A DNA stretch of 20,000 bases, taken from IMG/VR virus record IMGVR_UViG_3300009104_000003; one strand, given 5' to 3'. The notes under the pieces are model-generated. The model was given only the letters and a program-made list of their open reading frames with translations, made no database searches and had not been told where the DNA came from. This document shows, in pieces, positions 4,846 through 20,000 of the stretch (positions are counted from its first letter, which is position 1; the number at the start of each line of letters is the position of its first letter). The translations under genes and the position numbers were made by a program. This DNA is from an uncultured virus (IMG/VR IMGVR_UViG_3300009104_000003) (lineage: Duplodnaviria > Heunggongvirae > Uroviricota > Caudoviricetes).

Positions 4846-4857
4846 AGTTTTTTCCTA

Positions 4858-4865
4858 TATAAATA
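4858..4865 (+). promoter_or_regulatory. T4-type late promoter (TATAAATA) for the gp4 operon
   Basis: Exact TATAAATA in the short divergent intergenic region, 35 nt before the gp4 ATG. Confidence 0.8.
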
Positions 4866-4893
4866 GAGTTAACATTAATTTAATATATAGAAT

Positions 4894-4901
4894 TATTTAT
4901 A
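4894..4901 (-). promoter_or_regulatory. T4-type late promoter (TATAAATA) for the gp48-53-hub-5 operon
   Basis: TATTTATA on the + strand, which is TATAAATA on the - strand, upstream of gp48. Confidence 0.8.
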
Positions 4902-5353
4902 TGAGTTACAAAGGCAGATACAAAATTACTAAACCAGAGAAATATGTTGGGGATTCTACCAATGTTGTATATCGTTCTCTCTGGGAAAGACAATCATTTA
5001 AATGGTGTGAGAACAATCCAAACGTTAAAGCATGGAATAGTGAAGAGGTAGTTATACCATACATTGCACGAGAAGATAAAAGAATGCATCGTTATTTCGT
5101 AGATCTATTAATAGAAATGAAAAATGGTGATACATTTCTAATAGAAATTAAACCTAAAAGCCAAACAAAACCCCCTAAACAACCTAAGAGAAAGACCAAA
5201 AAGTATCTTAAAGAAGTTATGACCTATGTGAAAAATCAAGATAAGTGGGAAGCAGCTGATAAGTTTGCTCAACATAAAGGTTGGAAATTTCAAGTCTGGA
5301 CAGAAGATACTTTGAAAAATTTAGGCATCAAACTTCTGAAGTCCCAGGTATAA
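4901..5353 (+). CDS. gp4: Head completion nuclease gp4 (TnsA-like fold)
   Basis: MSYKGRYK..PEKYVGD..VVYRSLWER..WC..WNSEEVVIPY..HRYFVD..IEIKPK..NQDKWEAA..WKFQVWTE. The likely start is the ATG at 4901, not 4679. Confidence 0.95.
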   Translation: MSYKGRYKITKPEKYVGDSTNVVYRSLWERQSFKWCENNPNVKAWNSEEVVIPYIAREDKRMHRYFVDLLIEMKNGDTFLIEIKPKSQTKPPKQPKRKTKKYLKEVMTYVKNQDKWEAADKFAQHKGWKFQVWTEDTLKNLGIKLLKSQV

Positions 5354-5356
5354 ATA
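5349..5356 (+). promoter_or_regulatory. Late promoter TATAAATA for gp2
   Basis: Exact TATAAATA overlapping the gp4 stop, 5 nt before the gp2 ATG. Confidence 0.8.
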
Positions 5357-5361
5357 GATAT

Positions 5362-5955
5362 ATGGCAAGTTTATTTGATACATTACAAGCTGGAGCATAT
5401 AGAGCTAATATAGTTCCTAGAACTAAGAAATCTAGGGCTTGGTTTCAAGCGCGCGTACGTGAGCTCGGGGACGTATCTAGAGCTAAAATAATGAAAGATG
5501 ATCAGCTGAAAGTACGTGCTCAACCCAAGATAGGTGATATGTGTATGTATGTTTATGATCCTAAATTAAAAGCCGAATTACCATATTACGATAAATTCCC
5601 TATGTCAATAATGGTACAACCAGCACCAGGGGGATTTCATGCATTGAATTTGCATTATCTTTCTCCAGGAGTAAGAGCTTTATTTCTAGATGAATTAATG
5701 GGATTAGCACCTAAAAAATTAGCAGAAACAACTAGACTAACAAGATTAAAATATGATCTATTAAAAGGTGCAACAAAATATAAAGAATTTAAACCTTGTT
5801 TTAAACATTATCTTATGTCACATGTTAAATCTAAAATTAATAGAGTACCAATGACCGAATGGGAAATTGCAGTATTCTTACCAGTAGATGAATTCAAAAA
5901 AGTATCTCGAGATACTGTTTGGAGATATTCTAGAAAATCTATATACGGAAAATAA
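5362..5955 (+). CDS. gp2: DNA end protector protein gp2
   Basis: SRAWF..IGDMCMYVYDPKLKAELPYYDKFP..GFHALNLHYL..FKPCFKHYL..W..A.FLP. The likely start is the ATG at 5362. Confidence 0.93.
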   Translation: MASLFDTLQAGAYRANIVPRTKKSRAWFQARVRELGDVSRAKIMKDDQLKVRAQPKIGDMCMYVYDPKLKAELPYYDKFPMSIMVQPAPGGFHALNLHYLSPGVRALFLDELMGLAPKKLAETTRLTRLKYDLLKGATKYKEFKPCFKHYLMSHVKSKINRVPMTEWEIAVFLPVDEFKKVSRDTVWRYSRKSIYGK

Positions 5956-5963
5956 ACATACAG

Positions 5964-6608
5964 ATGGCTAATTCAATAGAAGATTTAAAAGCAAGTATAT
6001 CTAAACATGGTGGATTAGTACCAGCAAATAGATTTAATATAATCTTTACTCCTCCACAAATTTCTCTTATAAATTTAAACCCTACTAATTTAATAGGAAG
6101 TTTAATATCCGGATCATTCAGTGCAAAAAGTTTAATTAATGATCCAAGAGATATAACTTTATTGTGTAAAACTGCTTCTTTACCAGGGCAACAAATAAAT
6201 ACTCTGGATTATCAAGCACACAAAGAATCAAGAAAAATGCCTAACGCAGCAACACAAGAAGATATATCTACAGTTTTTTACGTTACCAGCGACATGTATA
6301 TTAAGACAATGTTTGATGGCTGGTTAGACGCTATATTCGACAGAGAAAATTATCACGTCGGATTTAAAGATGAATTCAGTACTGATGTAACTATACAGCA
6401 GTTGAATAAAGAAAATAGACCTGTTTATGGAGTAAGATTGCGAAATGCATTTCCTACTTCTGTAGGAGGTCTTGGCCTGGATCATAGTAGTGAAAATACT
6501 ATGCAGGAGTTAACGGTTAGCTGGTCCTATGATAAATGGGTACCAGAGAATGCGATAACATCGACTCTTGGTGGTGGACTAAGAGCGATTAAAAATTTAA
6601 TTTCATAA
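5964..6608 (+). CDS. gp54: Baseplate tail-tube initiator, gp54-like (gp19 tube fold)
   Basis: GGL..ANRF..LLCKTASLPG..K.P..FDGW..I..IQQL..L.NAFPTSVG..L..LTVSWSY. Located next to gp26. Confidence 0.7.
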   Translation: MANSIEDLKASISKHGGLVPANRFNIIFTPPQISLINLNPTNLIGSLISGSFSAKSLINDPRDITLLCKTASLPGQQINTLDYQAHKESRKMPNAATQEDISTVFYVTSDMYIKTMFDGWLDAIFDRENYHVGFKDEFSTDVTIQQLNKENRPVYGVRLRNAFPTSVGGLGLDHSSENTMQELTVSWSYDKWVPENAITSTLGGGLRAIKNLIS

Positions 6609-6626
6609 TAATTGGAGAATAAAATT

Positions 6627-7337
6627 ATGGCTTTACCAAAACTTGATGTGCCTCGTTATCCGGTGACAATTCCGTCAACGGGAGAGGAATACATTATGAG
6701 ACCTTATTTAGTTAAGGAAGAAAAGGTCTTATTGTTAGCTATGGAATCTCAGGATCCCAAACAAATAGCATTAGCAATAAGAAATTTAATAAGTAATTGC
6801 ATTGAAGGTGAAATTAATATTGATTCTCTTGCAGGGTTTGATATTGAAAAACTTTTCTTAGAATTGAGAGGAATCTCAGTTGGAGAAAAGATTCAATTAC
6901 AAACTAAATGCCAAGCTGAGGAGTGTGAACACCCTAATGGCGTTGAGATCGATATTAAAGATATTCAATTAAAGGATTATAATCCAGATGACTCAATAAT
7001 TAAGCTTTCAGAAGATGTTGGCGTAACTATGAGATACCCAACCATTGATTTATTAAATGATATGGAAGGTGATTTGGATTCATTAGATACTTTAATGAAT
7101 ATTGTAACATCATGTATTAATACTATTTTTGATAATGAAAATATTTACGATTGTAAAAAAGAAAATATTAAAGAAGTTCAAGACTTTGTTGATAATTTAA
7201 CTTCTGATCAATTTAAATTGATAAGTAGTTTCTTTCAAAATACTCCGGTATTAGAATACGACTTAAGATTTAATTGTGAAAAATGTGAGCACGAAAGTTC
7301 ATATGAACTGAGAGGGCTCCAAAGTTTTTTTACGTAG
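6627..7337 (+). CDS. gp26: Baseplate hub assembly protein gp26
   Basis: MALPKL..P.Y..PSTGE..RPYLVKEEKVLLLA..FDIE.LFL.LRG.SVGE..MRYP..CEKC..GLQSFF. SD GGAG at 6614-6617 favours the ATG at 6627. Confidence 0.92.
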   Translation: MALPKLDVPRYPVTIPSTGEEYIMRPYLVKEEKVLLLAMESQDPKQIALAIRNLISNCIEGEINIDSLAGFDIEKLFLELRGISVGEKIQLQTKCQAEECEHPNGVEIDIKDIQLKDYNPDDSIIKLSEDVGVTMRYPTIDLLNDMEGDLDSLDTLMNIVTSCINTIFDNENIYDCKKENIKEVQDFVDNLTSDQFKLISSFFQNTPVLEYDLRFNCEKCEHESSYELRGLQSFFT

Positions 7338-7357
7338 GCCTCTCACATGAGAGCATC

Positions 7358-7510
7358 ATGAATCATTATCAAACTAACTTTGCGTTGGTACAACATCACA
7401 AATATAGTTTGAATGAATTGGAAAACATGATACCGTGGGAGCGCGATGTTTACGTTACAATGTTAAAAGATCATATAGAGGAAGAACTGGAAAAACAGAG
7501 GAATAAGTAA
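7358..7510 (+). CDS. gp51: Short gp51-like baseplate hub assembly catalyst; possibly the C-terminal part of a -1 frameshift fusion with gp26
   Basis: Not in the ORF track. MNHYQTNFALVQHHKYSLNELENMIPWERDVYVTMLKDHIEEELEKQRNK carries the ENMIPWER..Y motif of short gp51 proteins in marine T4-like phages. Confidence 0.88.
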   Translation: MNHYQTNFALVQHHKYSLNELENMIPWERDVYVTMLKDHIEEELEKQRNK

Positions 7511-7904: not shown

Positions 7905-9959
7905 ATGGCTGACGATAAAACAGATGCTGAAAGCCAAAGAGGTAAAACAGGTAAATCAAAGCCTGACCCAGTCTCGGGTAGTACTCAAAAAGAATTACTA
8001 TCTGAAATAAAAGAAACTCTGATTAAACAATCAGAGAACCTTGGCGAATCCCTAGGAAGAGATACGATTAATGTTCGTAGACATCTCCTTGAAATGAAGA
8101 ATATGACTGCTGCGCAGTTAGAAAATCAAAAAGCCCTTAATAAAACCTTCGGTGCTCAACTTGAAAATGAAGAGGAAAAGCTAGAAGGAGAATCAGTTGA
8201 AGGTCTTAAAGAGGAAGAAAAATCCGATGATATGCAAAAGATCTTTGAGGATATAAGAGATTCTCTAAAAGGACAACCAGAAGCTTTAGCTAAAGAAGGA
8301 TCAAAAGAATCCGGAAAATTAGCTGAAGGTCTAATGGGTGGTATGGGCAAGATGCTGGGCGGCTTAGGTATAGGTGTTGGAGCTGCTGGACTCGGAGCTG
8401 CAGCTGTTATAGGAGCAGGAGCTTATCTATTAAATGTATTAGATGATATAGATTCTGAAAAGATAAAAGAAAATGTTGCAAACCTATTAAGTATTAGTGA
8501 TCTAGTTGAAGCAGATGGGGATTCATTTATAGGAGAAGGAAGTAAATTCTTCTTAGCCATGCTTGGTTTAGGCCTTGGATTAGCAGCATTTGCAATAGGT
8601 TCGGCCGCGACCATGGGCGCGTCAGCTTTAAGTCCAGTAGTAGAAAAATTTACAGGAAAGAAATGGACTGATGATGTTAAAGATAATGTTATAACCCTTT
8701 TAAGTATATCTGATGAAGTAGGTGGTGCTGGTGAAATGCTTAAAGATGGTGGTGCATTCTTCCTTGCAATGACTGGTTTAGGTCTTGGATTAACAGCTTT
8801 TGCTATTGGTCAAGGAGCTTCAGCAGTTGCCTCAGGACTTTCGGCCGGTGTAGAGATGTTTACAAAAGAAGGAGACTGGGCAGAAAAGATAAAGAAAGAT
8901 GTTATAACATTATTATCTATTTCAAAAGAGCTAGGTGGTGCTAAAAATCTTATGGGAGAAAGCGGTGCATTCTTCCTTGCAATGACAGGTCTTGGATTAG
9001 GTTTAGTAGCATTTGCAATTGGTAAAGCTGGATCCGGTGTTGGTGATGCAATTACATTGTTCCAAGGTGAAAATTTTGCAGAGGATATTAAAGCAGAAGT
9101 AGAAACACTATTATCCATATCACAAATAGAAGGAATGGGTTGGGATACAACTAAATTCATAGCTGTTATGGGTGGATTAGCTGCAGGTCTAGTAGCATTT
9201 TCTTATGGTAAAGGCATGGCTGGATTAGCTGATGCAATAACTAAATTCTCAGCTGGTGATAATTTTGCTGAAGATATTAAAAGAGAAGTAGCAACACTAT
9301 TAACCATTGGTGATTTACCTTCAGCAACATTAGAAAAAACTACAAAAACAACTGCCATATTAGTAGAATTAGCTGCAGGTCTAGCTGCCTTTGGCGGTGG
9401 TACATTTATTGGAGCATTAGGTCAAGCCATGGCAGCTGTTGTAAAATTCTTTTCAGGTGAAAAAGGTCCAGTAGAACAAGCGCTTATCTTAGCAAATAAT
9501 GCTGATCAAATTGATAAAGGAGTTGATTCTTTAGAAAGATTTAGAAATGTTTTAACTGATTTCCAAGGATTAGGTGATATAACATTTGATATGGATACGG
9601 AGCAAATGGCTGAGGATCTATTGGACGCTACAAAGGTATTTGAGGTAGCTTTAGAAGGTGGAATTGATTATAGAGGATTCAATACAGAAGTTAAGGGATT
9701 ACTTAATATAGAAGGAATAGATAGGGTTACTGAAGAAATTAATCTATTAAAATCCTTATTTGCTCCAATTCAGACTACTGGTTTAGAATTAGTTGCTGCT
9801 GGTAATCCTGCTTTAGCGACTGCCGGAGGACCTACTTCTGTTGATCAATCTGTCTTCTCACCAACAAGTTTAACTACTAGTACAAACATCACTAATTTAG
9901 CTTCTATACATTCAACACCAGATTCATCTGATACGACTAATTCTTTAAAGATTGGATAA
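7905..9959 (+). CDS. Tape measure protein (gp29 equivalent)
   Basis: 684 aa with a charged helical N-terminus, Gly/Ala-rich helical repeats and a Ser/Thr-rich C-terminus. It follows gp54-26-51. Confidence 0.75.
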   Translation: MADDKTDAESQRGKTGKSKPDPVSGSTQKELLSEIKETLIKQSENLGESLGRDTINVRRHLLEMKNMTAAQLENQKALNKTFGAQLENEEEKLEGESVEGLKEEEKSDDMQKIFEDIRDSLKGQPEALAKEGSKESGKLAEGLMGGMGKMLGGLGIGVGAAGLGAAAVIGAGAYLLNVLDDIDSEKIKENVANLLSISDLVEADGDSFIGEGSKFFLAMLGLGLGLAAFAIGSAATMGASALSPVVEKFTGKKWTDDVKDNVITLLSISDEVGGAGEMLKDGGAFFLAMTGLGLGLTAFAIGQGASAVASGLSAGVEMFTKEGDWAEKIKKDVITLLSISKELGGAKNLMGESGAFFLAMTGLGLGLVAFAIGKAGSGVGDAITLFQGENFAEDIKAEVETLLSISQIEGMGWDTTKFIAVMGGLAAGLVAFSYGKGMAGLADAITKFSAGDNFAEDIKREVATLLTIGDLPSATLEKTTKTTAILVELAAGLAAFGGGTFIGALGQAMAAVVKFFSGEKGPVEQALILANNADQIDKGVDSLERFRNVLTDFQGLGDITFDMDTEQMAEDLLDATKVFEVALEGGIDYRGFNTEVKGLLNIEGIDRVTEEINLLKSLFAPIQTTGLELVAAGNPALATAGGPTSVDQSVFSPTSLTTSTNITNLASIHSTPDSSDTTNSLKIG
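8455..9405 (+). repeat. About five degenerate 55-72 aa repeats in the tape measure protein (consensus IK.dV.tLLsI....FflAM.GLglGL.AFaiG)
   Basis: Visible in the translation. The DNA repeat GGTGCATTCTTCCTTGCAATGAC occurs at about 8751 and 8964. Confidence 0.85.
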
Positions 9960-10101: not shown

Positions 10102-10989
10102 CTATGATTCGTTTGCTAGTTTAGCAAAATAACTCAAAGTATCATCTTCTTCAGAAGAAGATTCAGGTTGTACTTCAGGCATTGAATCCATAGTTACATT
10201 AGATGTGGCAGTAGCAGGTGCAGTTGCTGCAGCTGTAATACCAGCATCAACTCCAAGAACCCTATTCAATTTAGCTTTAAGCTCATCATATGATTTGTAG
10301 TTCTCAGGAGAAGCAAACTCTGACAAAGTATATAATTTACCATATACTTCTTCTAGTACAGAATCATCTTCCGACAAAGGAGTCGGTGTAGAAAATTCTG
10401 ATGCATCATAGTTTGTCCAACCATCTATTTTTCTGATTTTTAATTTAAAATCAGCACCTTCCCAGAAGTCGAACGGATTAACCGGTACTTCATCTGAGAA
10501 TGCAGGTTGCATTGCATCCATGACTTTGTCAAAGATTTTTTTACCAAACCTGTAAAGGAATACTTTTCCTTCAGCATCAGGTCTAGTAGAGTCAGATATC
10601 ACCTGGATATTTGACACATAATGTAATCTACGTTTACGTTCACGAGCAAGTGCTTTATCTTCTTCACGACCAGTATTCCAAAGAAGCGTATTAGCTTCAG
10701 ATACAGGATCTGGTTGATTAATTGAAGTTAAAGAATTCTCGATATACCAGAGACCAGTTGGGCCTTTAAAGCCATGATCCCAGTAACGAACCCAAGGTAG
10801 ATCCTCACCCTCTTTAGCAGGCAAGAAACGAATAACAGCGTATCCATTGCCAGCTTTATCTTGAGTGGGTTTCCAGAAACGTTCATCAACATATGATTTA
10901 GTTTCTGATTTTGTTGAAACAGCTTCCGCTGCTTTTACGAGATTGTCGATTGACGAGCCTCGTGCGCTCTTTAAATTTGCAAATGACAT
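10102..10989 (-). CDS. gp32: Single-stranded DNA-binding protein gp32
   Basis: DERFWKP..DKAGNGYAVIRFLP..LPWVRYWDHGFKGPTGLWYIENSLT..GKVFLYRFGKKIFDK..PFDFWEGADFKLKIR, with acidic tail DDTLSYFAKLA. Confidence 0.98.
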   Translation of the reverse strand: MSFANLKSARGSSIDNLVKAAEAVSTKSETKSYVDERFWKPTQDKAGNGYAVIRFLPAKEGEDLPWVRYWDHGFKGPTGLWYIENSLTSINQPDPVSEANTLLWNTGREEDKALARERKRRLHYVSNIQVISDSTRPDAEGKVFLYRFGKKIFDKVMDAMQPAFSDEVPVNPFDFWEGADFKLKIRKIDGWTNYDASEFSTPTPLSEDDSVLEEVYGKLYTLSEFASPENYKSYDELKAKLNRVLGVDAGITAAATAPATATSNVTMDSMPEVQPESSSEEDDTLSYFAKLANES

Positions 10990-11051: not shown

Positions 11052-11081
11052 ATTATACCACACTATTGTGGTTTTGTAAAC
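11052..11081 (-). promoter_or_regulatory. T4-early-type sigma70 promoter for gp32
   Basis: Minus strand GTTTACA, then a 17-nt spacer ending TGTGG, then TATAAT, with an A-tract upstream. Confidence 0.85.
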
Positions 11082-11653
11082 CTCTTTTTGATAATATTTA
11101 AACATTTATCTTTTTTGAAGTTTACGAATGGACTATACTTTTTGATCTTTCTAGAAGTATCGGGCCAAAACAAAGTTTCGGTTATCTTACTCCCTTCTTT
11201 CTCAACAAAGTTAGTCAATTGATCAAGGATGACCACTGTTTCCAGTGTTATGTCTTCCTCCATCCATCTTTTAATAATCTCCGGAGGTGTGTTTATATTG
11301 TTCACCACCAAAAGATCATCAAATTCTTTATTACCAATAGTATTTATATCTTTTTCGAACACACGATGTATTGCTTCATGTACTCTTTTATATTCAACAT
11401 AATTTTTCTTGGCTGTAGGATCCATCATATCTCCTACGTATTTTGCATCATTAATAAATTGTGATACATAAAATTCTTTTAATTCCTTTGGATAATTTTT
11501 AGCTAACTTAGCAAAATAATACTTATCCTTTCTTTTAAAGAAACTATTATGATTAATTGTAGTATGAAAATTATATTTGATAGCATCATATGTATCACTC
11601 TCAAAATGAAGTTTAAGTGCATTATATAATTTATAACTGTCGAAAGGATCCAT
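11063..11653 (-). CDS. gp59: Helicase loader gp59
   Basis: MDPFDSYKLYNALKLHF..YD..KY..F.KRKDKYYF.KL..ITLETVVILD..KKYSPF. The likely start is the ATG at 11653 (TAATG coupling). Confidence 0.92.
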   Translation of the reverse strand: MDPFDSYKLYNALKLHFESDTYDAIKYNFHTTINHNSFFKRKDKYYFAKLAKNYPKELKEFYVSQFINDAKYVGDMMDPTAKKNYVEYKRVHEAIHRVFEKDINTIGNKEFDDLLVVNNINTPPEIIKRWMEEDITLETVVILDQLTNFVEKEGSKITETLFWPDTSRKIKKYSPFVNFKKDKCLNIIKKRFTKPQ

Positions 11654-11841
11654 TAATATAAATTGCTCCAATCTATAGGTATATGCCACAATATTGTAAA
11701 AAATAAATAAATCATAGCACCAACAAAAAGACCTAATCTTTGCTGTTTCCAAAATAGAGATATTATTAAAAACATAATAACTACAGCTATATCAAAGTTA
11801 AACATAGCCCACTGCATTTGAATTTCTATATTCGAATTCAT
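11653..11841 (-). CDS. Small membrane protein, 62 aa, two TM segments
   Basis: Two hydrophobic stretches. Coupled to gp33 (ATGA) and gp59 (TAATG). Confidence 0.7.
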   Translation of the reverse strand: MNSNIEIQMQWAMFNFDIAVVIMFLIISLFWKQQRLGLFVGAMIYLFFTILWHIPIDWSNLY

Positions 11842-12080
11842 ACTGGTAAGCTATTTTTCTTTTTAACTTTAACTAGATTTAGACCTTGAGCTTCTTGTGT
11901 GAGTTTTTCTTTTAATGCAGGAGAAATGAGTTTCTTTACATTCATATAATCCATTCCTCTTTCTTCTATTATGTAAGTCATTGCATCTATATAACTCATA
12001 TTCTTTTGAGATACTAAAACTTCAACTGCTTTAGTGAATCTCTTCTTGGTCATTATCTTGTGTTCTAATTCTTCAATCAT
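11838..12080 (-). CDS. gp33: Late transcription coactivator gp33
   Basis: F..AVE.LV....SYIDA....E......V.KLIS..LKEKL..EA..LN.......LPV, in the gp33-gp59-gp32 synteny. Confidence 0.92.
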   Translation of the reverse strand: MIEELEHKIMTKKRFTKAVEVLVSQKNMSYIDAMTYIIEERGMDYMNVKKLISPALKEKLTQEAQGLNLVKVKKKNSLPV

Positions 12081-13228
12081 TCTACTCGTAATAAAATTGT
12101 ATCTTTATTTATTCTTCCTGTGGGTATACCAATTTTAGTGGTTAAAGATTTCCACACATTATTAATTTGTTTTTCTGTCTTGGTAAGAATTTGGGGTAAG
12201 ATCTCATCAGGTTTCCTGAGTGTTGTAATTCGACTAGTGGTATCATCCCAATTCTTTAGTGTTGATCCTTTAATCTCAAATCCTAACACAGAGTTAGAAT
12301 GAAATTCTGTAAGCTTTCTTGTCTTAATATTATACATCCAAAACATTTGAGATTTAGGTATAAGAGCTGGAGCAATAGAATGAAGTTTAGCATCTTCATC
12401 TTCTACTAAATATTTTAAAGTCTTGACTTGATCAGTAGCAGTATATACTTTCTTTGCTCTAGTAGTTCTTTGAGCTTTTTGTGCTTCCCTATATCGTTCT
12501 ATATCATCAAAAATGCTATCCATAAGATCAATCATCTTTCGCTTATCACCTTTCTTGATATGTGCATATCCTTCTACGCATTGCTCATCTGTTTTCTCGT
12601 AAGCAGCTTTAATTGTTTCATATTCTTCCATTACTATATCACGAAACATATTAATGGCAGAACCTTTTAATCCATGTAATTGTAATAAACTATATGTAGG
12701 AAATTTAACTATCTTTTTATCAAATTCATTATCCATCCATTTATCAATAACCATTTTATCCCAATCAACTGCTATAGTCTTTAATACCTTTAGGCGCATT
12801 CTTTCATGCGGACTTATAACAGGAGGTTTATCTTTTTTCTTTTCGTCTAATTCGGTTTTTAATTTCTTTGCTTCTTTAAAATACCCAGCAATCTTTTCTT
12901 TCATGTTTTCTTTCCACTCGTCTTCATATATCCATCCTTGATAAAAGAGACGAACCCATGAACCTGCATGAATTCCTAGTTTCCAGGCCGGTAATTTTTT
13001 AAGTATAGCTATATCTGATTTAGAATATCCTAATTCTTCTTCACAATATTTAAGAACTATGGGTACATGATCTTTTGATTTATAAAAATAATCATACCAA
13101 TGAGATGATTTAGACCATTCCATTCCTCTTCCTTTTGACCCTATTGGGGGACAAGGATTAGTTTCATCCCAGAAAGGTTCTTTACCCATGTACAGTTCAT
13201 CAACTGATTTTATTCTTTTCTTTACCAC
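12077..13228 (-). CDS. Conserved hypothetical protein of T4-like phages upstream of gp33
   Basis: 383 aa with a GTG start coupled to the upstream micro-ORF. C-terminal motifs YN.KTRKL..G.EIKGSTL..TLRKP..TGRIN..TILLRV. Confidence 0.85.
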   Translation of the reverse strand: MVKKRIKSVDELYMGKEPFWDETNPCPPIGSKGRGMEWSKSSHWYDYFYKSKDHVPIVLKYCEEELGYSKSDIAILKKLPAWKLGIHAGSWVRLFYQGWIYEDEWKENMKEKIAGYFKEAKKLKTELDEKKKDKPPVISPHERMRLKVLKTIAVDWDKMVIDKWMDNEFDKKIVKFPTYSLLQLHGLKGSAINMFRDIVMEEYETIKAAYEKTDEQCVEGYAHIKKGDKRKMIDLMDSIFDDIERYREAQKAQRTTRAKKVYTATDQVKTLKYLVEDEDAKLHSIAPALIPKSQMFWMYNIKTRKLTEFHSNSVLGFEIKGSTLKNWDDTTSRITTLRKPDEILPQILTKTEKQINNVWKSLTTKIGIPTGRINKDTILLRVE

Positions 13229-13332
13229 TAAACTACAGTACTTACTATAAATATCATTAGTATACCAAGTCCAAATGTTCCTAGAATTAGGTATACTGAA
13301 TATTTAATTAAGTTTGTTAAAAAATTCCACAT
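13228..13332 (-). CDS. 34-aa single-TM peptide (MWNFLTNLIKYSVYLILGTFGLGILMIFIVSTVV)
   Basis: Not in the ORF track. Its TAG overlaps the GTG of the next gene (TAGTG). No clear SD. Confidence 0.55.
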   Translation of the reverse strand: MWNFLTNLIKYSVYLILGTFGLGILMIFIVSTVV

Positions 13333-13349
13333 AATATTATCTATAAAAT

Positions 13350-13394
13350 GCCGGTCCTACCCTTTGATAAGGAGTTAGGGTAGGTAAGACCGGC
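13350..13394. other. GC-rich 14-bp bulged hairpin with an SD/anti-SD loop; terminator-like on the minus strand
   Basis: GCCGGTC-CTACCCT [TTGATAAGGAGTT] AGGGTAG-GTAA-GACCGGC. On the minus strand it is followed by ATTTTAT. Confidence 0.8.
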
Positions 13395-13410
13395 CAAAAC
13401 GCTAAGCGTT

Positions 13411-13683
13411 TTATTTTGCCCTATATCGCCTAAAGCGATCGATAAGAGTTTCACCTTTTGCTCTCTTACCTATATAAACTGTTTTTCCAGTAGAACTTAT
13501 TTCTCTTCTAATGAGTCCAGAATTAAATGTGGTATCGATTACTCGACCATCTCCTTTTCTATCATCATACCATACATTGGTATCATCAGAATTAAACATG
13601 TGGATATTATTAACTTTTTTACCCCATGCTTCAGCAGCTGCCTTGATGCGCTGCTTTTCTACTACATCATCATATTGAGTCAT
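13411..13683 (-). CDS. Hypothetical protein, 90 aa
   Basis: ORF track; GGAGG upstream; ATGA-coupled to the upstream micro-ORF. Confidence 0.8.
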   Translation of the reverse strand: MTQYDDVVEKQRIKAAAEAWGKKVNNIHMFNSDDTNVWYDDRKGDGRVIDTTFNSGLIRREISSTGKTVYIGKRAKGETLIDRFRRYRAK

Positions 13684-13826
13684 AGCTTAGGTTTTTCCTC
13701 CCGCCTTGCTTGTTCGTTCCTGATAAGTTTTTCTAAAATGTTTTCCCATAATTTTTTAAACTCAGGATTTTGAGCTCTTTTCATTGCTTCTCTAACCGCA
13801 AAGACTCTTCTATTAAATAGTGTCAT
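13680..13826 (-). CDS. 48-aa hypothetical protein (MTLFNRRVFAVREAMKRAQNPEFKKLWENILEKLIRNEQARREEKPKL)
   Basis: Not in the ORF track. ATGA overlaps at both ends exactly fill the gap. GAGGA upstream. Confidence 0.75.
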   Translation of the reverse strand: MTLFNRRVFAVREAMKRAQNPEFKKLWENILEKLIRNEQARREEKPKL

Positions 13827-14116
13827 AGTTTTTTAATCCTCTCTAATATTATATTTACCATATTATCATCTAAATATCCGATCACATCTGATGTGATAGG
13901 TGTATCATAAGTAATATCTCCCCAAGGATCAAGAACTGCTAGTTCCCATAATCCCTTTTCAAATCCATATGATCCAGGAAACATAACTACGCTCGCGCCC
14001 ATACCATTTCGAAATTTGTATAGCTTTTGTATACCTCCATTCGAATGGGTTTGGACTTCAAGGGTTGGTTGTCCTTCCTTCATCTTTTGATTTAAAGCTT
14101 TGGAAATATTATTCAT
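13823..14116 (-). CDS. Hypothetical phage protein (F.NG.GASV...SYG...GLWELAVL..ITYDTPIT.DVIGYL family)
   Basis: ORF track; I recall this motif from widespread uncharacterised phage proteins. Confidence 0.85.
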   Translation of the reverse strand: MNNISKALNQKMKEGQPTLEVQTHSNGGIQKLYKFRNGMGASVVMFPGSYGFEKGLWELAVLDPWGDITYDTPITSDVIGYLDDNMVNIILERIKKL

Positions 14117-14123
14117 AATACAT

Positions 14124-14150
14124 AAAAGACCCCCAACGCGATGGGGGTCT
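14124..14150 (-). terminator. Intrinsic terminator or attenuator hairpin
   Basis: Perfect 9-bp stem AGACCCCCA/TGGGGGTCT with a 6-nt loop, followed by TTTATGT on the minus strand. Confidence 0.75.
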
Positions 14151-14151
14151 C

Positions 14152-14232
14152 CAACTGGCTGCTCACGGTTCTCTCGGTCCCCTGCAGGGGCTCACCAACA
14201 GATACGCTGTTGGGGAGAGCGTGGCCCGGTTG
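14152..14232. ncRNA. Candidate structured RNA (three-way junction), family unknown
   Basis: GC-rich intergenic island with nested pairings CAACTGG/CCGGTTG, CACG/CGTG and CTCTC/GAGAG enclosing hairpins CCCC-TGCA-GGGG and CCAACAG-ATACG-CTGTTGG. Confidence 0.6.
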
Positions 14233-14243
14233 TTCTAAATAGT

Positions 14244-14660
14244 TCATGCAGATACTTCGCCAATATCTTCTAGATTGAAGTTGTAATCAGCTAAACAAGC
14301 CTCTTCATCTCCATATCTAACATCAGTTTCTCTAAAAATCTTTAGAGCAAAATCAGCTGCAACGCCGCAGGTATAATAAGGACCTCCAACATTCCATGTG
14401 ATTTCTTCTGAATCATCATTAAAGTTTCTAGCATAATGCCAGTCATAAAGACTAAAGGTTCCTGTTTCAAGGTCACCCCAAGCATCATAGTATTCGAAAT
14501 CAACTACAAATTCTGTAGTGATTTTATCACCTTTACCTTCAAAGGCAGGTGTACCAAACATCTGTTCTAGCTCGTAGAAAGATGCGGTTATTGAGCCTTG
14601 AAGAGAACCACCAGCGGTTCCATCATCACAAGGTTCAAATCTTATTTCATTTTTTTCCAT
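14244..14660 (-). CDS. Hypothetical acidic phage protein (SLQG.I.A...EL...FG.P....DK...E....F.LYDW family)
   Basis: The ORF track gives 14678 as the start. SD AAGGAG at about 14670-14675 favours the ATG at 14660. Confidence 0.85.
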   Translation of the reverse strand: MEKNEIRFEPCDDGTAGGSLQGSITASFYELEQMFGTPAFEGKGDKITTEFVVDFEYYDAWGDLETGTFSLYDWHYARNFNDDSEEITWNVGGPYYTCGVAADFALKIFRETDVRYGDEEACLADYNFNLEDIGEVSA

Positions 14661-14829
14661 AATAATTAACTCCTTCAAAATTGAATTTAGAAAAATCGTT
14701 TGTAAATCTTTTATTAAACCTCTCCATAAAAAAGTCTGGAGCGATTTTATAAATCAAAAAATCTAACAACGAGACCTTTATCCCTAGATTTTTTGATCTA
14801 CTGTTTATTGTAAAATTAGCTACGAACAT
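14647..14829 (-). CDS. Hypothetical protein, 60 aa
   Basis: Its ATG directly follows the upstream stop (TAAATG), and it fills the gap between neighbours. Confidence 0.6.
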   Translation of the reverse strand: MFVANFTINSRSKNLGIKVSLLDFLIYKIAPDFFMERFNKRFTNDFSKFNFEGVNYYGKK

Positions 14830-15171
14830 TTAATAATCTCCATCAGCTGATCTGTTAGCATTATATGCGTCCATTATAGAACTATCCGCGAGGAATTTTT
14901 CTGTATCTTTATCAGAGTAATACATATTCTCTGGACGATTAAAATCTAAACCACCTTTTGCAAGATGTCCAGCTTTTTTAACTTGACCGGTTAGGTCCTT
15001 AGCAACTTTGCGCTCTTCTTTTTTGCGAGCTTTTTCAGCTGCTTTTGCTGCTGCTTTGCGAGCATCGAGCTCATCGCAGATTAGCTTTCCTTCATATTGC
15101 TCGAAGGTCAAGCCAAGTTTTTTAGCCTCAAGTTTCATTGCGGCTTTTTTGATTATTTCGATTCGATCCAT
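14830..15171 (-). CDS. Hypothetical early protein, 113 aa, Lys/Ala-rich helix
   Basis: Strong RBS ATAAGGAGTTATAATG directly behind an early promoter. Confidence 0.85.
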   Translation of the reverse strand: MDRIEIIKKAAMKLEAKKLGLTFEQYEGKLICDELDARKAAAKAAEKARKKEERKVAKDLTGQVKKAGHLAKGGLDFNRPENMYYSDKDTEKFLADSSIMDAYNANRSADGDY

Positions 15172-15206
15172 TATAACTCCTTATTGAATTTTGTATCTAT
15201 ATGGCC

Positions 15207-15236
15207 ATTATACCACATTTCGAGAGGTTTGTAAAC
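15207..15236 (-). promoter_or_regulatory. T4-early-type sigma70 promoter
   Basis: GGGGTTTACA, then a 17-nt spacer ending TGTGG, then TATAAT. AT-rich UP region with the repeat TGAAAATAATT twice. Confidence 0.9.
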
Positions 15237-15268
15237 CCCTTTTTTGAAAATAATTGAAAATAATTTCA

Positions 15269-15628
15269 TTAATATCTCACCTTTTTCCATGGATAACACC
15301 TACCAAATAAGTCATATTCAGCAGTTTTAGCTTCCATTTCTGAGGGATATTCCCCTCTCATAAATTGTTTTGCGTGAACCATTTCATGAGCTAATGTTAA
15401 CATCTGTTCATAAAATGATTGTTTTTGAGCAATATCAATATCAGCATCTCTTCTGTCTCCTTCACAAGCTCCCAGAGAATCTCCATATCCATTAGGCATT
15501 CTTTTTCTAAACCTTATGGTAATAGTTCCATGCTTACGCCTGTCAAGTCTAAATCTCTTGATTATATTCACGGCATATTCTTCGACTAAATGTCGATCTT
15601 TAACACTACCTGTAATTTCAAGCATCAT
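15269..15628 (-). CDS. Putative zinc metallopeptidase (HExxH; SprT/ImmA-like small zincin)
   Basis: TLAHEMVHAKQ motif with a downstream third-ligand candidate in PSEMEA. Confidence 0.7.
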   Translation of the reverse strand: MMLEITGSVKDRHLVEEYAVNIIKRFRLDRRKHGTITIRFRKRMPNGYGDSLGACEGDRRDADIDIAQKQSFYEQMLTLAHEMVHAKQFMRGEYPSEMEAKTAEYDLFGRCYPWKKVRY

Positions 15629-15725
15629 TAAATTTTAAATCCTTTTTAGATTTTTGCCTTTCTTTTGTCTCACGAATCTTTTTAAGTTTTTTAGATTCTT
15701 TTCGAGATAAAGAATTAGTGTTCAT
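15618..15725 (-). CDS. 35-aa highly basic peptide (MNTNSLSRKESKKLKKIRETKERQKSKKDLKFNDA)
   Basis: Not in the ORF track. The ATG is 1 nt after the upstream stop and its end overlaps the start of the peptidase gene. Confidence 0.55.
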   Translation of the reverse strand: MNTNSLSRKESKKLKKIRETKERQKSKKDLKFNDA

Positions 15726-15726
15726 T

Positions 15727-15954
15727 TTAATAGTCATAGCCCCAATCCTTGAAATGACCCTCACGCTCGTTATCTTCATAACCTTGATGATATTCTTTAA
15801 CTTGTTTTGGTGTCATAAATTCTTCTATGACCAAAGGATTTTTATATGTTCCATTTGGATAGAAATGAGGTTTTGCTAATCTCCTGTAATAAGAATCTGC
15901 TGTTCCTCGATCGTACGGGGATCCGTGAACTTGTTGTTCTATTTTAATAGCCAT
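15727..15954 (-). CDS. Hypothetical phage protein (HGSPYDRG.ADSYY.R family)
   Basis: ORF track; TAATG coupling and GAGGAG SD. Confidence 0.85.
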   Translation of the reverse strand: MAIKIEQQVHGSPYDRGTADSYYRRLAKPHFYPNGTYKNPLVIEEFMTPKQVKEYHQGYEDNEREGHFKDWGYDY

Positions 15955-16394
15955 TATGCTGTCTCCTCGTAAATTTCTTCAGTATACTGACGATTTTCTT
16001 GTTCACCGCCAGGTGCCATGTTATAAGTTGCAACTGACTGTCCGCGAGGACCTTTATATTGCTCAGTAGCAAAATAAGTTCCATCTTCGCGACGTGTGAT
16101 ACGTGTATCATATCTAACACCATCACCATAGCGATCTTCTTTCTGCCATCTTTCGAAATCAGAGCAATATCCATCTTCTTCAAGATGAACTGCGATAACG
16201 AATTCCTCGCTAGCCTCATTTTTGTAATTAATGAGATTAGTGAGTTCGTTTATCACATTTTTGTGATTAACGTCACCGGTTACTAAATAGGTTGACCCAC
16301 CTTTGGGCTTCCAATACTGAGGGCATTCGCCTTCGCCGTCCCAAGAATGGGCTCCGTAGTTCTCGCGGTATTGGGTATCAATTGCTAAAATCAT
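15954..16394 (-). CDS. Hypothetical early protein (TQY.ENYGAH.WDG.GECPQYWK.KGG family)
   Basis: First gene after an early promoter; RBS ATAAGGAGTTATAAATG. Confidence 0.88.
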   Translation of the reverse strand: MILAIDTQYRENYGAHSWDGEGECPQYWKPKGGSTYLVTGDVNHKNVINELTNLINYKNEASEEFVIAVHLEEDGYCSDFERWQKEDRYGDGVRYDTRITRREDGTYFATEQYKGPRGQSVATYNMAPGGEQENRQYTEEIYEETA

Positions 16395-16431
16395 TTATAA
16401 CTCCTTATGATTAATTTTGAATATGGGTACC

Positions 16432-16461
16432 ATTATACCACATTTTTGGCCCCTTGTAAAC
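16432..16461 (-). promoter_or_regulatory. T4-early-type sigma70 promoter
   Basis: GGGGTTTACA, then a 17-nt spacer ending TGTGG, then TATAAT, with phased A-tracts upstream. Confidence 0.9.
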
Positions 16462-16464
16462 CCC

Positions 16465-16506
16465 TTTTTTCAACTTTTTTCAACTTTTTTCGTAACAAAT
16501 CGTAAC
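16465..16506. repeat. 10-bp phased repeats (TTTTTTCAAC x2, TTTTTTCGTAAC, second CGTAAC) forming an UP element or bent DNA
   Basis: T6 tracts start at 16465, 16475 and 16485. CGTAACA occurs at 16491 and 16501. Confidence 0.75.
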
Positions 16507-16682
16507 AGTTTTGGCATAAGTTTATGCCCATTCTGCATATAAGGCCCCCAGAAAGGGCCCCATATAAACATAAAGGTCCCCCCGCGCAAACGCGCTTAGG
16601 CGCGCGCTACGGAGCTTAAAAAGGGTGTTTTAGGTGAAGAATTGGTAGGTTTCGCGACTAGTGCCCATATGCGTGCTTAGAA

Positions 16683-16805
16683 TCACACATAAGTCATTGA
16701 GCTTTTTAGTACTATCCCTAATAGGTAGCCACAAAAGAAAAATGCGGCTGCCCAGCCTGGATATTCTTTACAGAATTCCCAGATAGCGATCATATAATTT
16801 CTCAT
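16683..16805 (-). CDS. Small membrane protein, about 40 aa
   Basis: The ORF track start is 16898, but the SD GAGGT favours the ATG at 16805. One hydrophobic segment, WAAAFFFCGYLLGIVL. Confidence 0.65.
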   Translation of the reverse strand: MRNYMIAIWEFCKEYPGWAAAFFFCGYLLGIVLKSSMTYV

Positions 16806-16821
16806 TTCATTTACCTCACTC

Positions 16822-16851
16822 ATTATACTCATGTCCAAAATAATATTGCAA
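16822..16851 (-). promoter_or_regulatory. Possible sigma70 promoter (TTGCAA-18-TATAAT)
   Basis: Near-consensus hexamers just upstream of the small membrane gene. The 18-nt spacer is suboptimal. Confidence 0.45.
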
Positions 16852-16907
16852 AAAAAGCAAACCCGCCTATACCATAGACGAGTGTACCTATTAACCAAAC
16901 TGGTATC

Positions 16908-17360
16908 TTATTCAACATCATTTAATGGATTTTCTAGTATTTGTTCAATTCTATCTTCAAGTTCGTCTCGCATTTCACGTACATCATCATCCACTTCTCT
17001 GAAGCGATCTTGCATTTCTTGCTCCATTTCATATACGTCATTGCGAACTTCTCTCTGTGTCTCGGCAGTTGAATCTTCAACATCTCGAACTAAGTCTTGG
17101 ACTTTGTCAAGATCTTCTTTTACCTCATCAATATCAGCTCGTAATTCTTCTTTAATTACTTCTGATACTGATCTTAGGTTTTCAACCTCTGCCAATATTG
17201 TAGTAGGATTTAATTTTTGGAGTTTTCCTTCTGCTAACAAAAGTCTGTTATACAGTTCGAAACCTCCCCAGAGACCACCTACTAAGGTACCTATTAATGG
17301 CAGGATCATAAGCCATTTGCTTCCGCCTACCTTTATTCCTTGATATTCTACTTGTGCCAT
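16908..17360 (-). CDS. Protein with an N-terminal TM anchor and an acidic coiled coil
   Basis: Hydrophobic segment WLMILPLIGTLVGGLWGGFELY followed by a D/E/R-rich helical region. SD GGGAG. Confidence 0.85.
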   Translation of the reverse strand: MAQVEYQGIKVGGSKWLMILPLIGTLVGGLWGGFELYNRLLLAEGKLQKLNPTTILAEVENLRSVSEVIKEELRADIDEVKEDLDKVQDLVRDVEDSTAETQREVRNDVYEMEQEMQDRFREVDDDVREMRDELEDRIEQILENPLNDVE

Positions 17361-17363
17361 GTC

Positions 17364-20000
17364 TTACTCCCGGTTGTATTGCATATCTATCATTTTTTGT
17401 AATTTACCTTGGGTTTTACCCGCCATCATATAAAAGTTATATTGGTTATCATCTATCTTATTACTAGCATATAATGTTTTAGATCGATACCAATCTTCTT
17501 TATCGCTTAATTGTTCTTGTCCAGTATAATCTGAGAATCCAGCTTTATACCCTAAGAAAGCGACTGTTGCAGTTTGATCTGAATCAAAACCTCCACTTTG
17601 TTGTACATCTGATAATTGTGATTGGAGATTAGCTGCTGCTACCGCTGCACCTTGTCTATCCGCTAAGGATTCAACAGCTTCTGAAACCTGTTGTTCATCG
17701 ACTGTAGGTGGAGCAATATCAAACTTTGCAAAACTCGGTGCTGTATTACTTAGGAATTGTCCAATACTTTGTCCTGATCCTAATGCATCATCAAATGAAT
17801 CTTCAAAGTTTTGAGCTGCTACTCCAAAAGAGCTACCATCATCAAATGTAAATTCTTGTGTATCTGCTGTTTCTTCTTGTTGTTGCTCTGCAACTTCAAA
17901 CGCAGATATTACTGGTCCAGAATCAATTACTTCTGCTACCTGTATTTGTGTTTGTACTTGACCACTAACTTGTTCTTGTTGTTCTACTACAAATGTATCT
18001 CCAGTAGATTGTGTAATTTGTCCTCCACCAGAACTTGAGCTACCAGAAGAGAAACTATTACTATCAAAACTAGAACTTCCTCCACCAGTAGATCCATCAT
18101 CCAATTGTTCCTGAATTACTTCAGCAACTGTTTGTTGTTCTTCTTGTGTTCCACCAAAGTCAATTTCTGATATAGCTGCCTGTGTAGCTTGAGTAGAAGA
18201 ATTTGAATCTTGTGATACGGCTTGTTGTATTGTTTGTTGTTCTTGTTGTTGCTCTTGGGCAATCATTACAGTAATTTTTTCTTTCTCTTCTTCTTCCTCT
18301 TCTTCTCTTGTTCTCATCTCCGAATCATCTCCTTCAAAAAGTTCTTCTCTATCTTCTTCAAAAAATTCTTCTGCCTCTTCCTCGTTGATAAGTTCTTCTA
18401 ATTCTTCTTCATTAATTAGATCTTCAAGTGCTTCATCTTCGATTTCTAAAAATTCTTCCTCTAAGCTCTCATAAGCTTCTTCAAATTCTTCATAGACCTC
18501 TTCTTCTTGTGTTTCCATTGCATCTCTTTCATAATCTTCTAATACTTCTTCATAAACCTCTAATACTTCTTCTGGTGACCAATCTTCTTCTATAAAGATC
18601 TCAACACCAATAGCTTCTTCTAATATATAAAGATCATCTACATTTGCAGTTAAAACTTCTTCAAATGAAGTTTCTTGGAAAGATGATTCTTCAACAAATC
18701 CTTCCTCATCAAATGATACCTCTTCACCCCACCATTCATCAACTTGTTCTTGACCAAAGGTTTCTACCTCATAGTCATACCAATCTGCATCAGTTTCCAT
18801 ATTTGCAACAGTTTCAACAAAATACTCTACAGCTTCTTCTGTAAACATTTCAGCATATTCTTCTTCTGTTGCTAATTGCTCTAAATATGCCAGTTCTTCT
18901 TGATATTGTTCCTGTTCTATATCATATTGATCCATATTAGCATCCAATGCTGAAAAGAATTCTTCTTCTGTTGTTCCATATTGTTCAAAATCCATATAAC
19001 CTTCATCAGAGAATTGAACATCTTGTCCATACCATTCATCAACTTGTTCTTGGCCAAACTGCTCAATGTCTAATGCATACCAATCAGCATCTGTAAATCC
19101 TTCACAAGCATTTTGATAACAAGGGTCATTAGGGTCTAAGTATTCACCATATTCTTCATCATACCACATATCATCTTGAGTATAAGCATTTCCGTATTCA
19201 TCATATCCATATTCATCTTCATAACCATACATATCATCATTAGTTCCATAGATCGCATCATATAATGCTTCCTCTTGCGCTAGCGCGCTCGCGTACCCGT
19301 CGCACGAAGTAGAATAAAATACATCTAAATCACATTCATATATTAATAAAGCTGCTGCGTATCCTGTACAATCTTCATCATATAAAACATTCAAAGCACA
19401 TTGCTGAGCTAAATAAGCTGCTGCATAGCCTGTGCATTGTGTAGAGTACAAAGTATTCAAAGCACATTGTTGAGCTAAGTAAGCTGCTGCGTATCCTGAA
19501 CAATCTGTACTATATAAAGCATTAAGATCACACATTTGAGCTTCTGTTCCACCGAATAGTGAACCACCATTTTCTAAATCAGGCCCACCATAATCTGCAT
19601 ATTGTTCATCACATTGACTTGCACCATCTAAAAACATATCAAAAGTCTGACACCCACCTAAAGCTTGTGTATAATCATTATAGTATAGAAATGTTTTTGT
19701 ATCTGCTGGAGTAGTTGAGTGATTACCTTGTTCGCCTATAAGAACATCATGGTTAATAATATCTAATTCTCTATATCTGTATTCGTATGAATTATTATCA
19801 TAAAGGATTGCTTCAAAGCTATTACTTGAACTTCTATTATATTCTCTCATGTAATACCAACCAAAAACAACATAATCACCGAAGTCTTTAAATAACATCT
19901 TAGAAGTTTGTCCACCTGATGCTGTTCCTCTGATGTGATCAGTCCACATTGGATATAAAGTATAGTTTCGATAAGGTAAAGATTGTGGTGTGTAGTCTGA
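17364..20000 (-). CDS. Very large acidic protein, 5' end outside the window: NIDO-like beta domain, Cys repeats, Glu-rich linker, C-terminal domain
   Basis: The frame is open from 20000 (SDYTPQSLPYRNYTLYPMWTD...), so the true start is outside the window. LYPMWTD and FEAILY..YEYRY resemble nidogen-like extracellular domains. Confidence 0.85.
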   Translation of the reverse strand, partial: SDYTPQSLPYRNYTLYPMWTDHIRGTASGGQTSKMLFKDFGDYVVFGWYYMREYNRSSSNSFEAILYDNNSYEYRYRELDIINHDVLIGEQGNHSTTPADTKTFLYYNDYTQALGGCQTFDMFLDGASQCDEQYADYGGPDLENGGSLFGGTEAQMCDLNALYSTDCSGYAAAYLAQQCALNTLYSTQCTGYAAAYLAQQCALNVLYDEDCTGYAAALLIYECDLDVFYSTSCDGYASALAQEEALYDAIYGTNDDMYGYEDEYGYDEYGNAYTQDDMWYDEEYGEYLDPNDPCYQNACEGFTDADWYALDIEQFGQEQVDEWYGQDVQFSDEGYMDFEQYGTTEEEFFSALDANMDQYDIEQEQYQEELAYLEQLATEEEYAEMFTEEAVEYFVETVANMETDADWYDYEVETFGQEQVDEWWGEEVSFDEEGFVEESSFQETSFEEVLTANVDDLYILEEAIGVEIFIEEDWSPEEVLEVYEEVLEDYERDAMETQEEEVYEEFEEAYESLEEEFLEIEDEALEDLINEEELEELINEEEAEEFFEEDREELFEGDDSEMRTREEEEEEEKEKITVMIAQEQQQEQQTIQQAVSQDSNSSTQATQAAISEIDFGGTQEEQQTVAEVIQEQLDDGSTGGGSSSFDSNSFSSGSSSSGGGQITQSTGDTFVVEQQEQVSGQVQTQIQVAEVIDSGPVISAFEVAEQQQEETADTQEFTFDDGSSFGVAAQNFEDSFDDALGSGQSIGQFLSNTAPSFAKFDIAPPTVDEQQVSEAVESLADRQGAAVAAANLQSQLSDVQQSGGFDSDQTATVAFLGYKAGFSDYTGQEQLSDKEDWYRSKTLYASNKIDDNQYNFYMMAGKTQGKLQKMIDMQYNRE
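18695..19095 (-). repeat. Two copies, 300 nt apart, of TDADWY....E.FGQEQVDEW.G..V.F..EG
   Basis: The identical 22-mer ACCATTCATCAACTTGTTCTTG is at 18731 and 19031. Confidence 0.88.
19269..19532 (-). repeat. Four tandem 66-nt (22-aa) Cys repeats, C.Ln.lYs..C.GYAaA
   Basis: CDLNALYSTDCSGYAAAYLAQQ / CALNTLYSTQCTGYAAAYLAQQ / CALNVLYDEDCTGYAAALLIYE / CDLDVFYSTSCDGYASALAQEE. Confidence 0.92.

Follow-up and report, generated by a model that had tools for sequence, protein, structure and literature searches.

A GC-rich structured insert with a predicted terminator, present in some marine T4-like phages and absent from close relatives

The locus, its genes and its promoters

The window (the whole stretch of DNA that was analysed, 20,000 nucleotides) derives from a T4-like myovirus, with baseplate, tail-tube and head-closure genes at 486-7510, and all of its sampled words are contained in a 50-kb IMG/VR record (G001) that is 30% complete. 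The gp32 of the window has 55% identity to that of Methylophilales phage Melnitz and 53% identity to those of pelagimyophages, and we conclude that the genome that hosts the insert described here belongs to a marine T4-like phage similar in type to Melnitz and the pelagimyophages. The insert sits in a variable region, among small minus-strand genes upstream of gp33, and protein-family matches bear out the gene context given in an earlier note on this DNA, namely, a position upstream of gp33 and gp59, and add gp32 to the genes downstream. The genes and the promoter that concern the locus are as follows.

10102-10989, minus strand: gp32
11063-11752, minus strand: gp59
11838-12080, minus strand: gp33
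13823-14116, minus strand: 97-aa gene, first gene after the insert; phrog_4074
14244-14678, minus strand: 144-aa gene, last gene before the insert; no PHROG or Pfam match; relatives at 15 IMG/VR loci
15207-15235, minus strand: strong sigma-70-type early promoter (TTTACA, 17 nt, TATAAT, with TG; 11 of 12 matches)

The promoter at 15207-15235 is the nearest strong promoter upstream of the insert, with three genes in between, and a consensus scan finds no equally strong promoter-like site from the insert to the next terminator, near 13340. The insert has no promoter of its own: the number of promoter-like matches (25, vs. 22.7 expected) is at chance level, and there is no late-promoter match on the sense strand of the insert. 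A candidate antisense late promoter in the insert, consisting of TATAAATA and the one-mismatch TCTAAATA (14234-14241, plus strand), was dropped because these sequences occur at chance frequency, and a sigma-70-like site on the plus strand (14091-14119) does not rise above noise. With respect to translation, operon-initial genes have AAGGAG and the corresponding junctions of relatives have no Shine-Dalgarno sequence; internal genes of these operons rely on stop/start overlaps.

Two long open reading frames of the window are also anonymous by family search: an 861-aa frame at 17364-19949 (minus strand) has no PHROG and no Pfam match, and a 684-aa frame at 7905-9959 (plus strand) has no PHROG match.

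Fold, terminator hairpin and open frame of the insert

The insert and its parts, with structural elements taken from RNA folding, are as follows.

14112-14116, minus strand: right ATGAA repeat, with the start codon (ATG) of the 97-aa gene; overlaps the 44-codon frame at its TGA
14113-14247, minus strand: open frame of 44 codons that crosses the insert and meets both neighbouring genes in ATGA overlaps
14117-14242, minus strand: insert core, 126 nt, absent from the related loci L003, L004 and L026 by junction comparison
14122-14152, minus strand: intrinsic-terminator-like hairpin with U-rich tail, from consensus scan and folding
14152-14232, minus strand: Y-shaped three-way junction, every pair Watson-Crick, -32.2 kcal/mol alone
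14215-14232 with 14152-14176, minus strand: bulged closing stem of the junction
14195-14213, minus strand: hairpin A
14179-14190, minus strand: hairpin B
14243-14247, minus strand: left ATGAA repeat, with the start codon (ATG) of the 44-codon frame; overlaps the 144-aa gene at its TGA stop

The GC-rich island that the earlier note had described is present with that sequence and at those coordinates, having a GC content of 0.61 over 14120-14236, vs. 0.355 for the whole 50-kb record. RNA folding of 14110-14250 yields -54.5 kcal/mol (z -3.82) for the minus strand and -56.8 kcal/mol (z -3.56) for the plus strand, with none of 200 dinucleotide shuffles as stable in either case, and DNA folding parameters yield an identical fold (z -3.54). 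The two most stable of 2652 sliding 120-nt windows on both strands are those of the insert (-56.8 and -51.5 kcal/mol, against a background mean of -19.4 and standard deviation of 6.8 kcal/mol). The folding reproduces, almost base for base, the three-way junction drawn in the earlier note, and a comparison of both strands, as suggested there, gives the three-way junction and the terminator hairpin on each. The junction contains 28 pairs, with connecting strands of 1-4 nt, loops of 4-5 nt and almost nothing unpaired; an AU-rich single-stranded linker (14233-14242) lies immediately upstream. Because the junction is wholly Watson-Crick, it is expected to fold alike on both DNA strands.

The next most stable fold of the window (-49.3 kcal/mol) belongs to another non-coding GC-rich block, at 16538-16657 (minus strand), within a 500-nt intergenic region upstream of a promoter at 16432-16460. 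This block is nearly identical in L004 (about 620-700), where the flanks are merely ~61-78% identical.

The terminator hairpin (14126-14151) adjoins the three-way junction and comprises 10-11 pairs, six of them G-C, and a 6-nt loop, followed by the tail UCUUUUAU, with a U-run on the minus strand only. The minus-strand terminator that the earlier note had seen next to the junction is thus found, with its U-rich tail. Folded alone, the hairpin has an energy of -17.4 kcal/mol; its pair probability is 0.99998, and, in a consensus scan of 11500-17500, it ranks first among six terminator-like sites. It has the sequence characteristics of an intrinsic terminator (a GC-rich stem of 5 or more pairs, a 3-8-nt loop and, immediately behind the stem, a U-run on the transcribed strand), and the flanking genes on either side are on the minus strand, in the same sense as the U-run. 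We conclude that 14122-14152 is, by sequence, a canonical intrinsic terminator on the sense strand, with termination itself being predicted. The GGGGG that had been proposed as a Shine-Dalgarno sequence is a poor candidate for that function, since it is paired within the stem of the terminator and lies 13 nt away from the start codon at 14116.

A two-hairpin terminator lies farther downstream, at 13340-13412 (minus strand), between genes of 90 and 383 aa, and has counterparts in L024 (1157-1242) and L026 (1412-1505). Among these three sequences, five of 22 predicted pairs are maintained through two-sided changes, and the ~25-nt apex of the second hairpin is unchanged even in the distant L026; there is no Rfam match. 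The apex contains CUCCUUA, which resembles the 3' end of 16S rRNA. As a possible conserved RNA motif, the 13340-13412 terminator seems more promising than the 126-nt insert.

The 44-codon frame through the insert has a third-position GC content of 0.68, vs. 0.17-0.33 in 14 phage genes, and its GC content by codon position is 0.57/0.41/0.68. In shuffled sequences, the frame remains open in 861 of 5000 cases (~17%); multiplying by 1/3 for the needed length class gives an overall chance of ~6% for an open frame, a value that is suggestive only, as a hint of selection for a non-polar insert. A word-indexed protein search finds no homologue, and an exhaustive search of 1.84 billion representatives finds two weak matches (E 6e-5 and 4e-4), both of them multi-stretch matches to tandem-repeat proteins, and no credible homologue. 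The frame has no Pfam or PHROG match and no Shine-Dalgarno sequence before its start at 14247, and two of the six frames of the insert are open because of GC content. That the frame is instead a real 44-aa gene acquired from a GC-richer source, with the RNA fold incidental, would accord with the ATGA overlaps at both ends of an open frame and with a positional GC pattern as in coding DNA of GC-rich genomes, but the failure to find a credible homologue or family, the openness of a second frame through GC content and the oddity of a 10-pair terminator hairpin and a 28-pair junction within 44 codons make such a gene most improbable. We conclude that the frame is probably a translated spacer or a chance occurrence and no native gene.

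Filled sites, empty sites and identical copies

To place the insert among related phages, we gathered relatives through the proteins that flank it. The insert is absent at all 15 IMG/VR loci that have a relative of the 144-aa gene. At two empty sites the 144-aa and 97-aa genes overlap directly, as TAATG in L003 and as ATGA in L004; at a third, in L026, which has a neighbour protein 70% identical to the 383-aa protein, the C-terminus of the 144-aa protein directly adjoins the next gene but one. Across most of 5 kb, L003 has 98-100% identity to the window, yet is empty, and 12 of its 54 differences from the window in 12200-15300 cluster in the 62 nt just downstream of the insertion site, a pattern that, as judged from the alignment, looks like a short exchanged patch. 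The comparison of junctions leads us to conclude that the insert is an insertion polymorphism between the two small genes, of 126 nt, or of 131 nt if one ATGAA copy is counted. The 5-nt ATGAA repeat is equally expected from target-site duplication, from microhomology-mediated joining or from selection for a restored start codon. The insert may also be older than is assumed here, with empty sites arising from deletion between the ATGAA repeats.

Two further observations concern the junction. The empty junction of L003 (2905-2945) has 7 bases that are present neither at the empty sites of L004 and L026 nor at the window's left junction, and a MAFFT alignment places the 7 extra bases opposite the AT-rich tail of the insert; they could be an excision footprint or a chance similarity. 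In the four more distant relatives L014-L017, another small gene, of ~85 codons, separates the two homologues (of the 144-aa gene and of the 97-aa gene), some 30-300 nt past the end of the match; it thus seems that cassettes have entered this junction repeatedly.

Rfam 15 (4227 families) has no match at gathering score in the whole window; in 13900-14500, at E up to 10, there are three snoRNA noise matches, two outside the insert and one on its last 5 nt. The supposition in the earlier note that the insert belongs to no known family thus holds upon an Rfam check. ARAGORN finds no tRNA or tmRNA gene in the window, and the insert has no similarity to the permuted tmRNA of Melnitz. The 50-kb record contains one copy of the insert, and a single-sequence covariance model (R1) matches the window and L024 only (two of 33 sources, 358 kb). 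No further copy is found in IMG/VR with exact, degenerate or back-translated peptide patterns, or in five related phage records (G002-G006) with BLAST and, for four of the five, also with model R1. INPHARED blastn gives five short chance matches, none over 80% of the query, and a Tsuneonella match, among the matches listed in the genome-contig search, proved upon alignment to be a chance GC-rich similarity. All but one of the GC-rich islands of G002-G004 overlap long open reading frames, and none is like the insert. We conclude that the insert is without relatives in Rfam, in INPHARED, in IMG/VR, in one JGI metagenome scan beyond L024 and in protein collections; a cellular source is conceivable.

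These searches also turned up two structures at other sites. The cultured relative Methylophilales phage Melnitz-3 (L029, 4232-4684) has a permuted two-piece tmRNA ~270 nt upstream of gp33; no tmRNA is found at the corresponding place in the window. A GC-rich island near a contig end in G003 (441-600; L037) folds, over 220 nt, into several strong hairpins (-72.7 kcal/mol); the sole frame that it overlaps is a stop-to-stop one of 123 codons, and Rfam has no match to it.

Identical copies of the insert are found on differing backgrounds. A metagenome contig scan with a loop-degenerate pattern finds a single locus, L024, with the insert at the same site and 100% identical; over 3069 nt, the identity of L024 to the window is 90.3%, and the insert is unchanged. 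At least half of the sampled words of 13950-14450, comprising the insert and its flanks, are present in 18 marine DNA runs from at least six studies; in RNA runs X19-X21 the fraction is 0.13 or less. Five contig records, from four of four runs and four studies, span the insert, and exhibit no differences in 14112-14247. (No contig in the four runs skips the insert; the contigs show presence, not absence.) In run X17, record 3 (13725-14360, 636 nt) has 23 substitutions and 4 indels, all outside 13957-14251, and, assuming an even spread, the 136 nt would escape change with a probability of ~0.0015. In its upstream flank, this record has the letters of L004, which is empty, at 14252, 14264, 14265, 14274, 14277 and 14316, and the downstream flank is L024-like from 13956 onward. 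The insert therefore occurs behind two upstream allele families that are ~17% apart in the adjacent 65 nt, each of which also occurs empty; for the L004-like background the data are thin, with just one record bridging both junctions. Similarity between filled and empty alleles stops within 5-10 nt of the insert boundary. Since the copies are identical and their flanks differ, all copies share a very recent ancestor and have moved between backgrounds. A conserved non-coding RNA, judged by the refuting condition given in the earlier note, is not what is observed: all copies found are identical, which allows no covariation signal, and close relatives are without the insert.

Interpretation and comparison with known systems

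The explanation that we favour, and to which we give about an even chance, is that the insert is a discrete, non-coding, GC-rich foreign cassette in the ATGA overlap, acting in cis as a terminator and 3'-end structure, keeping translational coupling and spreading by recombination. According to this explanation, the insertion would have hit precisely the ATGA stop/start overlap by which two small early genes are coupled. In an empty allele, six small genes would form one early unit under the promoter at 15207-15235, extending to the two-hairpin terminator at 13340-13412; in the filled allele, the early transcript would end, or be strongly attenuated, at the insert, after the third gene, and a transcript ended there would keep a 3' structure of high stability. 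On leaving the 144-aa gene, ribosomes would re-start, cross the hairpins and re-start on the 97-aa gene; because the frame is open and has ATGA overlaps at both ends, translational coupling should survive on read-through transcripts. A ribosome close behind the polymerase would oppose hairpin formation and weaken termination. The insert would sense no ligand, and it would have reached different genomes by recombination between co-infecting relatives. A terminator inside the operon should be polar on the three downstream genes, and a benefit to the phage is therefore not obvious. The three-way junction is unnecessary for termination and, where the insert is read as a terminator, has at most a generic stabilising role.

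The main rival is a selfish mobile foldback element without a role for the phage, either REPIN/MITE-like and moved by an enzyme acting in trans or spreading in a homing-like manner at ATGAA, the terminator being incidental; we consider this possible, if on balance unlikely. The presence/absence polymorphism with a 5-nt direct repeat at the ends would fit such an element, as would the foreign composition, the zero diversity on diverged flanks, the occurrence of filled and empty sites in both upstream allele families with a similarity break within 5-10 nt of the boundary, the Watson-Crick-only junction by which both DNA strands fold alike, and the divergence of L003 just beside the site, which is like a co-conversion tract. 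However, the element occupies one site only across IMG/VR, INPHARED, the metagenome scan and the five related phage records; it has no terminal inverted repeats, its sole repeats being the two internal hairpins; no Y1 transposase (PF01797) is found in the 50-kb record, which is 30% complete, and no endonuclease gene is recognised nearby; and an ATGAA repeat would also be required of any viable insert to restore the downstream start codon. A more specific proposal, that a protein-less cassette spreads site-specifically in the manner of homing, driven by an endonuclease encoded elsewhere or by breaks at its own Y-shaped DNA fold, strikes us as rather improbable. It would explain why identical copies stand at one ATGAA junction behind alleles ~17% apart, and it would explain the empty sites in both allele families and the sharp boundaries (5-10 nt). 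In a close variant of the homing-like proposal, a newly acquired functional RNA may be sweeping the population by recombination. Origin (mobile or not) and function (terminator or not) may be partly independent questions, and a selfish arrival may be compatible with action as a terminator.

Two further alternatives assign the RNA itself a function. We consider it distinctly improbable that the insert yields a trans-acting small stable RNA, cut from the 3' end of the early transcript at the AU-rich linker (the earlier note had raised a processed sRNA from this transcript), having its own terminator and working by protein binding or as a decoy, not by base pairing. The architecture would suit such an RNA, with a compact and highly stable fold that ends in a sense-strand terminator hairpin and U-tail and is immediately preceded by the single-stranded linker at 14233-14242, and the insert is common (18 marine DNA runs), with a lack of diversity that fits a recent sweep of a useful allele; but the insert has no promoter of its own, offers almost no unpaired nucleotides as a seed and has no homologues for covariation, and phages near-identical around the site manage without it. 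Hardly credible, in our judgement, is the riboswitch-like attenuator of the earlier note, taken with the junction as an aptamer and with hairpin A and the terminator contending for the G-run, so that read-through to gp33/gp59 is gated. The junction does abut the terminator, and the complementary segment named in the note exists: the alternative pairing is possible on paper (10 pairs, with a single A bulged out), but it is 16 kcal/mol weaker, at -35.5 kcal/mol vs. -51.5 kcal/mol for junction plus terminator. The connecting strands (1-4 nt) and loops (4-5 nt) leave almost nothing unpaired for a ligand pocket, the terminator hairpin forms with a probability of 0.99998, none of the 4227 Rfam families matches even at E up to 10, and what lies downstream is a set of small hypothetical phage genes with no metabolic gene among them. 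The insert is absent from close relatives in which these downstream genes are the same, and, since it is missing from phages 98-100% identical around the site, it is no conserved regulator of those genes. A GC-rich fold beside a terminator in an AT-rich phage thus need not be a riboswitch, and the comparison of the insertion site with relatives settled the matter quickly.

Among known systems, the REP/REPIN, MITE, Correia and Rickettsia palindromic elements are short, GC-rich, hairpin-forming and insertion-polymorphic and can supply terminators; Rickettsia palindromic elements can also sit in-frame. The insert shares with these elements its small size, GC-richness, hairpins and polymorphism, but differs in having no copy family, no terminal inverted repeats and no transposase seen, and in occurring at one site. 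Nothing points to a classical MITE or REPIN: a repeat search and inspection of the termini found no terminal inverted repeats, and there are no copies at other sites in the collections searched. Rho-independent terminators with upstream stabilising hairpins provide a second likeness, in the GC-rich 10-pair stem, the 6-nt loop and the sense-strand U-run of a hairpin that closes a three-gene early unit; the difference is that the terminator of the insert comes on a discrete insertion, inside an open frame and after a full three-way junction. Riboswitch and attenuator leaders likewise have a structured domain right before a terminator, with some alternative pairing, but the insert has no known aptamer, no conservation and a 16 kcal/mol gap between folds. 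Phage T7 has RNase III hairpins between its early genes, and enterobacteria have small RNAs derived from 3' ends, providing examples of a protective 3' structure or a released RNA. The insert, too, would place bulged double-stranded RNA in a polycistronic early message, between two of its genes, but the T7 hairpins and 3'-end-derived RNAs are conserved and resident, whereas the insert is recent and without relatives.

In kind, the insert resembles known small palindromic insertion elements and terminator cassettes, and the part that deserves attention is an invariant non-coding cassette on mosaic backgrounds. The variable regions of T4-like phages are usually described as exchanging protein-coding cassettes; the insert is a purely non-coding, structured cassette that behaves like the protein-coding ones in a natural marine population, and it would split an early operon by a predicted terminator while the translational coupling of its neighbours would stay intact. 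If its spread is driven, and not neutral, the insert would count among the rare non-coding elements of phages that are inherited in a homing-like manner; should it prove a working RNA, that RNA would be new.

Homing itself, of T4 seg endonuclease genes, is treated in the SegB paper (PMC2330249). With the homing of T4 seg/mob genes and of introns the insert has in common filled and empty alleles of one site and a flank divergence concentrated beside the site, but it encodes no endonuclease, and none is recognised nearby. Promoter-early stem-loops (PeSL) of T4-type phages were reportedly described by Arbiol et al. in 2010 (PMC2839356). In a PeSL, as given in a later article, a stem-loop precedes a sigma-70-like promoter, itself followed by a Shine-Dalgarno sequence and a start codon, and the cassette is repeated in the genome (Comeau, Arbiol and Krisch, 2014; PMC4122927). 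The same article places such small non-coding regulatory stem-loop sequences at indel boundaries of related T4-like phages, in hyperplastic regions (PMC4122927), and in these respects the insert is alike. By that description, the insert differs in having no promoter and in being single-copy, and only ~6 nt separate the end of its U-rich tail (14122) from the ATG at 14116. The identification of the insert as a PeSL was accordingly rejected: there is no minus-strand promoter-like site before the ATG, and there is one copy in G001 and none in G002-G006. Elsewhere in the window, two promoter cassettes on the minus strand, at 16385-16470 and 15165-15250, are ~80% identical to each other, each having an A-tract, GTTTACA, an extended -10 element TGTGGTATAAT, AAGGAG and a start codon, and these two cassettes look PeSL-type.
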